DNA of 64,000 nt from NCBI RefSeq assembly GCF_003334405.1, contig NZ_QOWM01000001.1; one strand, given 5' to 3'. The position numbers were made by a program. Below are positions 42,001 to 45,000 of this stretch, in pieces. Numbering within the stretch: position 1 is the first letter of the stretch; the number at the start of each line of letters is the position of its first letter. This stretch comes from Escherichia coli. Lineage in GTDB: Bacteria > Pseudomonadota > Gammaproteobacteria > Enterobacterales > Enterobacteriaceae.

Positions 42001-45000
42001 TCCGGCTGCTTACAGCGGTGAATCCTGGCTAATCTCATCGAGCGAAAGATGGAAGCTGGGAACAAATATTTCCATGAAGTAGTCCATCTCCTGGCTGCGA
42101 CGCGCTTCAAGCGTCGCTTCCAGTCGCGTTTTTGCCAGCAAGAATTCATTATTTCCGGCCGCGAGTTCTTCCAGACATTTCAGATATGCACACAGTGCAT
42201 CTGCCTGTTTCACCAGCGATTTTTCTTCATCGCTATATGCATGCTCGTCAATTAACGGCGCAAAGATATCCCGCAGCTCTTCCGGAACCATATCGACCAG
42301 TTTTTGCTGAGCGATTTTTTCAATAGCCTTGTACTCCTGAGCGATTTGCGAATTGAAGTATTTCACCGGAGTAGGGAGATCGCCGGTGAGCACTTCTGAG
42401 GCATCGTGGTACATCGCCAGTAAAGCGATACGTTCGGCGTTGACATTACCGCCAAATTTTCGATTTTTGATAGCTGCCAGCGCATGGGCGACCATCGCTA
42501 CCTGCAAACTGTGTTCGGACACATTTTCCGTCCGCACGTTGCGCATGAGCGGCCAGCGGTTAATGAGTTTCAGGCGGGAGAGATGGGCAAAAAAATGGCT
42601 CTGTTTCATAGTGACCTTACGTATGATGACATCATCAGGTCATTGTGGCGGGATAACGCTGCCGGATGCAATCTCCGGCAGTGAAATTAAGATTACAGCT
42701 GATGATAACCAGAAAGGAAACGCGCGAACTTGCTCAAAGACAGCTCGATATCATCGACACGCGGTAGCGTGACAATGCGGAAGTGATCCGGCCACGGCCA
42801 GTTGAATGCCGTCCCTTGCACCAACAGAACTTTTTCCTGCAACAGGAAATCCAGCACCATTTTCTGATCGTCGTGAATGTTAAAGCGTTTGGCGTCGATT
42901 TTCGGGAACATATACAGCGCACCACGAGGTTTCACGCAGGAAACGCCCGGAATATCGTTGATCAGTTCCCACGCGCGGTTACGCTGCTCATAAAGACGAC
43001 CGCCAGGGGTAATAAATTCACTGATGCTCTGATAACCACCTAGCGCGGTCTGAATGGCGTGTTGCGCAGGAACGTTAGCACACAGGCGCATTGAAGCCAG
43101 CATTTCCAGACCTTCGATGTAGCCTTTGGCGTGTTTTTTCGGCCCGTTCAACACCATCCACCCCTGACGGAAGCCTGCAACGCGGTACGTTTTCGACAGT
43201 CCGTTAAAGGTAATGGTCAGCAGGTCAGGTGCCAGCGGCGCAATTGAGTGATGCTCAGCGTCGTCGTAGAGAATTTTGTCATAAATTTCATCGGCGAAGA
43301 TAATGAGATTATGCTGACGTGCAATCTCCACAATCTCCATTAAAAGCTCTTTGGAATATACCGCGCCGGTTGGGTTATTTGGGTTGATAATAACGATCCC
43401 ACGCGTACGAGGCGTAATTTTAGCGCGAATATCATCGAGGTCCGGGAACCAGTCAGAGGATTCATCGCAAAGATAATGCACCGCTTTACCGCTGGAAAGC
43501 GAAACCGCCGCGGTCCAGAGTGGGTAATCTGGTGCAGGAACCAACATTTCGTCCCCGCTGTTCAGCAATGCCTGCATTGCCTGAACGATAAGCTCCGATA
43601 CACCATTGCCGATGTAAATATCTTCCACGGTAACATCACGCATGCCACGAGCCTGGTAGTGCTGCATGATGGCTTTACGCGCGGAGTAAAGACCTTTGGA
43701 ATCGCAATACCCTTGAGCGGTAGGCAGGTTGCGTATCACGTCAACGAGGATTTCATCTGGCGCGTCAAAACCGAACGGGGCTGGGTTGCCGATGTTCAGT
43801 TTCAGTACCTTGTTACCTTCTTCTTCCAGGCGTTTTGCTTCTTTCAGCACCGGACCACGGATGTCATAACAGACATTCTCTAATTTGCTGGATTTTTCAA
43901 TGGGGGACATGAATCTTGACCTTTTTTGCTGTTATCGCCACTCCCTGCCGTGGAAGTCAGCTTAGAACAATGTACTCCCCCAGGACGGTGTTTTGAAGGT
44001 CTGCAGAATAAGATTTTGCCAGAGGGGAAGGCTCGATTGTGCTGTTAATAACTTAATAATGACAAAATAATGAGGTGTATATGCTTTACATGCAATGTTA
44101 TATAGTGAATTGTTCTGATTCTTAATTGTAAGTCTGGTTTTTTTATCTGTAAGATAATTGTGTGAAAATGCCTCATTTAAGAATTCACTAATGAAACGCG
44201 ATGATGATATTTCCTCATTACGGAGAGTTTAACTGCGTGATGATTTCCGAGGTGTCGCAATGGGGGCAAGGTGTGAAACTATTGTTAAGCGGAATTAATG
44301 AATGAGGATGATGCTAATTAATTATTATTTAATATTCAAAAAGGTTTTGATGTGCTTATTAATAATAGAAGATTACTTTGCCTAACATAACATAACTTTG
44401 CATCAGATAATTCGCAATGACCCTTATAAATAAAAGGTTTTTGGGGTAAAATGCTCGGATAAATGACGGATCCCTGCTCTTGATGCCGCCTCACCATTGC
44501 TGTTGGTACGTGTTCGCGTATGACCAGCGATGCTGCACGAGAGTGGAACAAGGACTCACATTTACATTTATACAAACACGCGCATGTCATAAATAGAAAA
44601 GAGTGAGTAACTTAATAGATATGCGATCCCTGAAGATATATTCTGTGATCTACTTCAGGCATTATAACGGAACAATGTGAGTCGCTTTTTTAGTGCAACT
44701 CATATGCATTTTTACTTTCGTCCGGGTTCCGGATGAAACTGCCAGGGAGGCACATTACAAATGGAATTGCTTGTTTGTGTGTGCACAGCATTAACCAGCT
44801 CAGTATGAGCCGCCAGTAAGTGATAATATATGATAAGTGCAAATCGTCCGATAATTAACCTCGACCTCGATCTGCTGAGAACATTTGTTGCTGTTGCCGA
44901 TCTGAACACTTTTGCTGCCGCAGCTGCCGCTGTGTGTCGTACTCAGTCCGCCGTAAGTCAGCAAATGCAGCGTCTGGAACAACTCGTTGGGAAAGAACTG

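Follow-up and report, generated by a model that had tools for sequence, protein, structure and literature searches.

LrhA stands near the top of the Escherichia coli network that governs motility, fimbriae, RpoS and, according to a 2026 report, CRISPR-Cas, and its gene is separated from the divergently oriented alaA by an exceptionally long tract of AT-rich DNA. What does this tract do? We addressed the question in a 64-kb stretch of E. coli DNA (contig NZ_QOWM01000001.1; hereafter the window), where alaA starts at position 43910 on the minus strand and lrhA at 44830 on the plus strand, leaving a gene-free spacer, 43911–44829, of exactly 919 bp. An earlier note, made from the sequence alone, had delimited precisely this interval; it supposed that the two divergent promoters lie within it and that the remaining length might encode a long regulated leader, a small RNA or a micro-protein.

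We conclude, with a high degree of confidence, that the spacer is not a single element but a compound regulatory region of three parts: the alaA leader, a segment that holds the divergent promoters and binds regulators, and an lrhA leader controlled by small RNAs (sRNAs). Read in this way, a very long AT-rich gap beside a global regulator consists of a long leader together with a promoter region for several factors, and the short open reading frames (ORFs) within it are noise. The spacer becomes the meeting point of transcriptional inputs (Lrp, CpxR and autoregulation) with post-transcriptional ones (Hfq, ArcZ, RprA, UhpU and McaS). Both the long regulated leader and the multi-factor divergent promoter region are already in the literature; Shimada 2014 includes the "920 bp-long lrhA-alaA" spacer in its set of long spacers that serve many factors. 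The transcription start sites (TSSs), Hfq binding, repression by sRNAs, Lrp chromatin immunoprecipitation (ChIP) and RNA 3′ ends are published data, whereas the conservation of promoters, islands and sRNA-pairing region, and the finding of no conserved ORFs or structure, come from the present analysis.

Two start sites and three parts

The TSS table of Kim 2012 (PMC3415461) gives lrhA a 5′ untranslated region (UTR) of 371 nt and yfbQ/alaA one of 52 nt. The 51-nt sequence ending at each of these TSSs matches the window and places that of lrhA at 44459 on the plus strand and that of alaA at 43962 on the minus strand (2407012, minus strand, and 2407509, plus strand, respectively, in U00096.3); no further TSS is present in that table between the nuoA and yfbR rows. 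The 919 bp are thus the sum of a 52-bp alaA leader, 496 bp between the two TSSs (43963–44458) and a 371-bp lrhA leader (44459–44829), the last amounting to 40% of the length of the spacer. The fusion primer of Melamed 2023 (PMC10578931) begins one base after 44459, in agreement with the lrhA TSS.

In our model the three parts operate as follows. The alaA leader is read leftward from its TSS at 43962, under a conserved sigma-70 promoter. The 496 bp of untranscribed AT-rich DNA hold the core promoters of the two genes, a box close to alaA and a conserved island of 60 bp, and at the lrhA promoter region Lrp (as activator), CpxR and probably LrhA itself act. The lrhA leader is bound by Hfq and pairs, in its last ~95 nt, with ArcZ, RprA and UhpU, with reduced synthesis of LrhA as the outcome; such pairing makes LrhA, the repressor of flhDC, responsive to signals from oxygen/Arc, Rcs, flagellar sigma-28 and hexose phosphate. 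Fragments from the 5′ end of the leader, with 3′ ends at +80 and +322, are stable and accumulate on Hfq.

The window is the reverse complement of the ~2.39–2.45 Mb region of E. coli K-12 and is 99.98% identical to MG1655 (NC_000913.3) over 64 kb, with 10 mismatches and one gap, which makes its source a very close relative of K-12 and not the reference strain. The alaA–lrhA spacer matches MG1655 exactly (K-12 positions 2406642–2407560), and the RefSeq annotation of that strain has no feature and no small protein inside 43911–44829. Each of 5426 complete E. coli genomes has a match to a 1119-bp query across the spacer, contiguous in 5396 of them. When the intergenic gaps of the window are ranked, alaA–lrhA (919 bp) is followed by lrhA–nuoA (630 bp) and yfbV–ackA (337 bp), with the rest at or below ~265 bp; the claim that the spacer is by far the longest is correct as to rank and somewhat generous as to margin.

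For comparison beyond E. coli, 80 LrhA loci were fetched, one per species of Enterobacteriaceae. The divergent neighbour is alaA in 78 of these, across a spacer of 764–1140 bp (mostly 905–1013 bp), and the remaining two have no alaA within the DNA fetched. Alignment with MAFFT of 79 spacers, including that of the window, reveals four islands of conservation against a background of low conservation. The first (43911–44020) comprises the alaA leader, its −10 and −35 elements and a box at −42 to −57; the second (44276–44335) lies between the promoters; the third (44395–44459) is the lrhA promoter; and the fourth (44745–44829) is the last ~85 nt of the lrhA leader, in which AAAnGGAAUUGCUU, CACAGC and AGUGA are near-invariant and within which the predicted and validated sRNA sites are located. 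Identity to E. coli is 20–45% both at the 5′ end of the leader, over ~275 nt, and in a core of ~255 bp between the promoters.

The distance between the two TSSs varies little among the 79 species (median 496 bp; interquartile range, IQR, 490–499), and the aligned lrhA leader measures 333–586 nt (median 396, IQR 381–435). We considered this constancy of spacing, maintained despite ~35% identity in the core, as a special feature and dropped it: the lrhA–nuoA spacer, our control, is equally constant (median 629 bp, IQR 626–631; 74 species), and for this reason the inter-TSS spacing is not read as special.

Promoters and islands between the genes

The supposition that the interval holds both divergent promoters is borne out by the mapped TSSs together with conserved −10 and −35 elements. 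On the minus strand, TACATT (−10, 43974–43969) and TTCAAA (−35, 43997–43992), separated by 17 nt, make up an alaA sigma-70 promoter (43969–43997) that fits the mapped TSS. The −10 is identical in 75 of the 79 species, and near-invariance extends to the −35 block CTTCAAAA. Immediately upstream, at −42 to −57 of the alaA TSS, the box GCAAAATCTTnTTCTG (44004–44019, minus strand) is kept in most of the 79 species. It is probably an activator, Lrp or UP-type site, any choice between these types being presumptive.

The alaA leader itself (43911–43962, minus strand; 52 nt from the TSS of Kim 2012, PMC3415461) is 46–53 nt long in the 79 species and contains a hairpin at +4 to +25 (43938–43959, minus strand), with a stem ACUUCC/GGGAGU of 6–8 bp. 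In CUUCCACGGCAGG, which comprises the ACGGCA loop and the pairs that close it, positions vary little or not at all. Covariation (AU/GC/GU) is seen in the outer pairs of the stem, and 88% of cells in the alignment are paired; changes on both sides of a pair occur in 21 cells compared to 8.5 ± 2.1 in shuffles, and controls in which the stem was slid along the alignment scored lower. Judged from the alignment, the hairpin could be a site recognized at the level either of RNA or of DNA.

The lrhA promoter (44403–44458, plus strand) precedes the TSS at 44459 reported by Kim 2012 and consists of an upstream box CAGATAATTCGCAAT (44403–44417), a −35 TTATAA (44424–44429) and a −10 TAAAAT (44447–44452). 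In 68 of the 79 species the −10 reads TAAGAT, TAGGAT or TAAAAT, and CTTATAAAT, which contains the −35, is near-invariant; across the alignment the two elements stand at proper spacing, hundreds of nucleotides upstream of the lrhA start codon. Published work provides candidates for control at this promoter. ChIP-seq combined with RNA-seq shows that Lrp binds lrhA and activates it directly, CpxR-P has been reported at the lrhA promoter in enterohaemorrhagic E. coli, and LrhA binds its own promoter in Pantoea.

Further upstream, at −183 to −124 of the lrhA TSS, lies the second island, GTGTGAAAnnnATTGTTAAGnnnnATTAATGA-N13-AATTAATTATTATTTAATATT (44276–44335). With an identity of 0.62–0.68 it is set apart from its poorly conserved surroundings, and its length is held at 59–60 bp. 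We presume, from conservation in the alignment, that it contains one or more transcription-factor operators. Parts of the island resemble what we take to be half-sites of the CRP, ArcA and CpxR kind; none fits well enough to be claimed. Between this island and the alaA box is the variable AT-rich core (44020–44275), whose identity to E. coli is 0.20–0.45 in the 78 other species, whose length has a median of 261 bp (IQR 257–265) and whose GC-content is ~0.31–0.33. A search of the inter-TSS DNA for direct and inverted repeats returned short two-copy matches only and no repeat family.

Could the length of the spacer be a consequence of its base composition? AT-rich DNA that is intrinsically curved, or that has been horizontally acquired, might be coated and silenced by H-NS, in which case the length would provide a silencing platform rather than room for specific operators. 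The composition is as extreme as the earlier note had stated: the GC-content of the spacer is 0.384, compared to 0.520 for the window, which places it among the lowest 1.5% of 919-nt windows, and 44041–44440, at 0.305, is the 400-nt window of lowest GC-content in the 64 kb. In addition, the comparably long csgD–csgB and nanC–fimB spacers are H-NS targets (Shimada 2014). Curvature, however, finds no support. Runs of at least four A/T nucleotides number 14, compared to 11.2 ± 3.0 in shuffles, and AA/TT dinucleotides have no 10–11 bp phasing (autocorrelation within ±0.065 at lags 10–11, 20–22 and 30–32); with neither an excess of tracts nor helical phasing there is no specific sequence evidence for curved DNA, and this part of the earlier note is not supported. 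Nor does the locus have the character of an acquired and silent segment: it belongs to the core genome, being present in all 5426 E. coli genomes, with synteny retained in 78 of the 80 loci fetched, and lrhA is expressed and activated by Lrp. In the genomic SELEX (systematic evolution of ligands by exponential enrichment) table of Shimada 2014 the H-NS column, filled for other spacers, is blank for lrhA–alaA. We consider a silencing platform unlikely. The more general expectation that nucleoid proteins bind the interval is supported for Lrp, by the ChIP and RNA-seq data, and finds no support for H-NS in the SELEX table.

Two other parts of the window are also AT-rich. The second-longest gap, lrhA–nuoA (45769–46398), has a GC-content of 0.35 around 45931–46330 and contains the nuo promoter, for which the published TSS gives a 128-nt UTR (Kim 2012 table, PMC3415461). 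A second strongly AT-rich stretch, at ~62600–63900 in the area of yfbN, yfbO and yfbP, has 400-nt windows with a GC-content of 0.325–0.383; the 919-nt stretch of lowest GC-content in the window begins here, at 62611, over uncharacterised genes. This stretch may have been horizontally acquired.

The lrhA leader and its small RNAs

The suggestion of a long regulated leader proved right. Melamed 2023 (PMC10578931) terms the 371-nt lrhA 5′ UTR (44459–44829, plus strand) "unusually long". In the same work, RIL-seq (RNA interaction by ligation and sequencing) yielded chimeras of the leader with UhpU, ArcZ, RprA and McaS, and an lrhA-lacZ fusion was repressed by UhpU, ArcZ and RprA, pairing of UhpU being proven by compensatory mutation. 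Comparison of the lrhA-M1 gBlock with the window identifies the mutation, which compensates UhpU-M1, as C44814G. Co-immunoprecipitation with Hfq had earlier recovered an "ig-lrhA-alaA" RNA in bands of 150 and 350 nt, which is part of a ~1.5-kb lrhA mRNA whose level is raised in an hfq mutant (Bilusic 2014, PMC4152368).

Where on the leader do the sRNAs pair? Full-length RNAduplex runs of the sRNAs against the whole leader were rejected because they gave non-physical interactions with very long loops, and were replaced by windowed local duplex predictions. These yielded complementarity to the seeds of all four sRNAs, with duplexes of −13 to −20 kcal/mol at 44739–44817. The predicted ArcZ site, CUGCCAGGGAGGC (44739–44751; −91 to −79 relative to the AUG), pairs with the ArcZ seed UUUCCCUGGUG at −17 to −20 kcal/mol. 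McaS and RprA share a predicted site, GUGUGCACAGCAU (44779–44791; −51 to −39), in which McaS would form 12 bp at 44779–44790 (−15.5 kcal/mol) and RprA 8 bp at 44783–44790 (−13.0 kcal/mol); a mapped 3′ end, 44780, falls at its 5′ edge. The UhpU pairing core, CGCCAGU (44811–44817; −19 to −13), is predicted at −13.0 kcal/mol and includes the validated C44814. Beyond it, 5 nt upstream of the lrhA AUG, is a Shine-Dalgarno-like GUGAU (44820–44824), which is complementary to the 3′ end of 16S rRNA; AGTG is invariant here in 76 species.

One near-invariant motif of the leader, AAAnGGAAUUGCUU (44759–44772, plus strand), is kept in ~76 species and lies in a hairpin of the minimum free energy (MFE) fold of the E. 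coli leader. It is outside the best predicted sites for ArcZ, RprA, McaS and UhpU, and is overlapped by a secondary McaS duplex (McaS nt 4–24 with 44763–44781, −18.2 kcal/mol). Its GGA, placed in the hairpin loop, resembles what we take to be a CsrA-type site.

A near-invariant motif in a hairpin might belong to a structured cis-regulatory RNA that is itself the sensor of a signal, be it as a riboswitch, as a thermosensor or as a leader that binds a protein. The leader is 371 nt long, its MFE of −111.9 kcal/mol (z = −2.46) means that it folds somewhat better than shuffles, and an RNA 3′ end at −50 carries an intrinsic-terminator score of 3.75. Against this, a search of Rfam at E ≤ 5 gave no meaningful family match, only chance matches to miRNA, snoRNA and CRISPR-repeat families, and across 76 species the conserved 3′ portion of the leader, 105 nt in length, yielded 0 consensus pairs in RNAalifold. 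The 5′ 275 nt have near-random identity between genera, and the conserved blocks are the sRNA-pairing and ribosome-binding sequences. A conserved block that has no consensus structure fits single-stranded target sites better than it fits a folded sensor, and we regard direct sensing by the leader as improbable.

The three-part reading, with sRNAs acting on the lrhA leader, leaves the RNA fragments to be considered. Term-seq (Adams 2021, PMC7815308) mapped 3′ ends at K-12 positions 2406933(−) and 2406691, which correspond in the window to 44538 (+80) and 44780 (+322, or −50 from the AUG). The first, listed as an "orphan" 3′ end, defines a 5′ fragment of ~80 nt (44459–44538, plus strand), has read counts similar to those of the lrhA mRNA 3′ end (Adams 2021, PMC7815308), and is situated just past a hairpin of the MFE fold (44496–44531); because it lacks a U-tract it presumably arises by processing or by Rho termination. 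For the −50 end, the scores are 1.06 for Rho ("No") and, as given above, 3.75 for an intrinsic terminator (Adams 2021, PMC7815308). The small RNA proposed in the earlier note is thus borne out only in a restricted sense: there are Hfq-bound 5′-UTR fragments of ~150 and ~350 nt, and there are Term-seq 3′ ends at +80 and +322, but no independent sRNA gene was found.

What might the fragments do? They may be decay intermediates. We offer as a tentative possibility, and a doubtful one, that the fragments of ~80 nt (to 44538) and ~322 nt (to 44780) act in trans, as sponges on Hfq that would titrate McaS and possibly RprA as well; together with AAAnGGAAUUGCUU and the 60-bp island, the locus might then harbor one or two regulatory inputs not previously described. 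A sponge would explain why McaS tops the RIL-seq chimeras with lrhA and yet does not repress it.

The leader is also a site of variation among strains. Strain NT1N31 (NZ_CP075480.1) carries an IS1 insertion in the lrhA 5′ UTR at ~+118 to +128 (window 44576–44586); the element is flanked by an 11-bp target duplication and splits the native lrhA promoter from the coding sequence. A contiguous copy of the spacer is lacking in ~30 of the 5426 complete E. coli genomes. Such interruptions may contribute to differences in LrhA level between strains.

Short reading frames and remaining doubts

The peptides to which the earlier note had drawn attention both exist in the sequence. MKRDDDISSLRRV is encoded at 44191–44232, as given there, and MRCICFTCNVI at 44070–44105, 13 nt from the 44083–44118 it had been assigned. 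If either of these ORFs, or either of two upstream ORFs in the lrhA leader (44733–44819 and 44761–44808), encoded a functional micro-protein or a regulatory leader peptide, then the reading frame should have been preserved. The spacer does contain more ATG-started ORFs of at least 10 codons than expected by chance (30, nested starts counted, compared to 17 ± 4.4 in shuffles), but none of the 30 is conserved. MRCICFTCNVI is intact in 2 of the 79 species and MKRDDDISSLRRV in 1, neither retaining start, frame and stop; Escherichia albertii has neither, showing ATA, or a stop at codon 2. Both ORFs lie in the variable core, between the TSSs at 43962(−) and 44459(+), and are therefore off any known transcript, and neither has a Shine-Dalgarno sequence in the 20 nt upstream. 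The leader ORF 44733–44819 is intact only in the three Escherichia sequences and is broken by internal stops in Citrobacter. The ORF at 44761–44808 has GGGAGG 10 nt upstream of its ATG; many genera have ACG, AGG or AAG in place of that ATG within an otherwise conserved motif, which points to constraint on nucleotides rather than on coding. Given also that RefSeq lists no small protein here in MG1655, a micro-protein is very improbable, and this suggestion of the earlier note finds no support.

That the AT-rich core harbors a separate gene for an sRNA acting in trans, complete with promoter and terminator, is hardly credible even allowing for the length of the region, the conserved island at 44276–44335 and weak promoter-like matches on both strands: Rfam offers no meaningful match at E ≤ 5, the table of Kim 2012 (PMC3415461) has no TSS in the core, the Hfq-bound RNA from the spacer maps to the lrhA leader (Bilusic 2014, PMC4152368), and a scan whose strict criteria missed both real promoters returned 3 promoter-like matches, compared to 3.4 expected from shuffles, and no terminator-like hairpin in the spacer.

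Several points weigh against the view of the spacer as a compound region. The TSS positions are published data that we checked directly in one dataset (Kim 2012) only. Conservation is low, and no role is assigned, over some 275 nt of the leader (44459–44735) and over a further ~255 bp in the inter-TSS core, which means that much of the length of the spacer is described rather than explained. On sequence grounds no specific factor could be assigned to the 44276–44335 island, and the positions of the ArcZ, RprA and McaS sites are predictions. McaS, the sRNA that accounts for most lrhA chimeras, does not repress lrhA (Melamed 2023, PMC10578931). The factor that binds the island and the origin of the 5′ fragments are parts of the model that we infer.

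The lrhA locus among known systems

The closest counterparts of the lrhA leader in E. coli are those of rpoS, csgD and flhDC. All are several hundred nucleotides long and bound by Hfq, with ArcZ, RprA and McaS among the sRNAs that converge on them; pairing takes place upstream of or at the ribosome-binding site, and the product is a global regulator in the network of motility, biofilm and stress. The likeness is not complete. sRNAs activate rpoS, whereas every validated effect on lrhA is repression; Rho-dependent attenuation has been shown for rpoS, whereas the −50 3′ end of lrhA is Rho-scored "No"; and McaS binds the lrhA leader without measurable effect, unlike in the rpoS, csgD and flhDC class.

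A second comparison is with the leaders of hexA (Photorhabdus/Xenorhabdus) and pecT (Dickeya), orthologues of lrhA that are likewise repressed by ArcZ, for which the predicted site in E. coli is that at −91 to −79. Although the orthology of the genes is shared, in our alignment the E. coli ArcZ site CUGCCAGGGAGG is kept only in Escherichia, Citrobacter and Salmonella, and E. coli lrhA is additionally a target of UhpU and RprA. The fragments have a parallel in the 5′-UTR-derived, Hfq-bound fragments and sponges described by Adams 2021 (PMC7815308): the lrhA leader too has discrete 3′ ends (+80 and +322) and Hfq-bound fragments, for which, in contrast to those sponges, a function in trans is only putative.

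Finally, as a piece of DNA the lrhA–alaA spacer belongs with csgD–csgB (755 bp) and nanC–fimB (~1.46 kb), with which it was grouped by Shimada 2014: each of the three is a divergent promoter region of unusual length, rich in AT and belonging to a regulator of stress or lifestyle. csgD–csgB and nanC–fimB are flagged for H-NS in that study and lrhA–alaA is not, and 40% of the lrhA–alaA spacer is transcribed leader rather than operator DNA.

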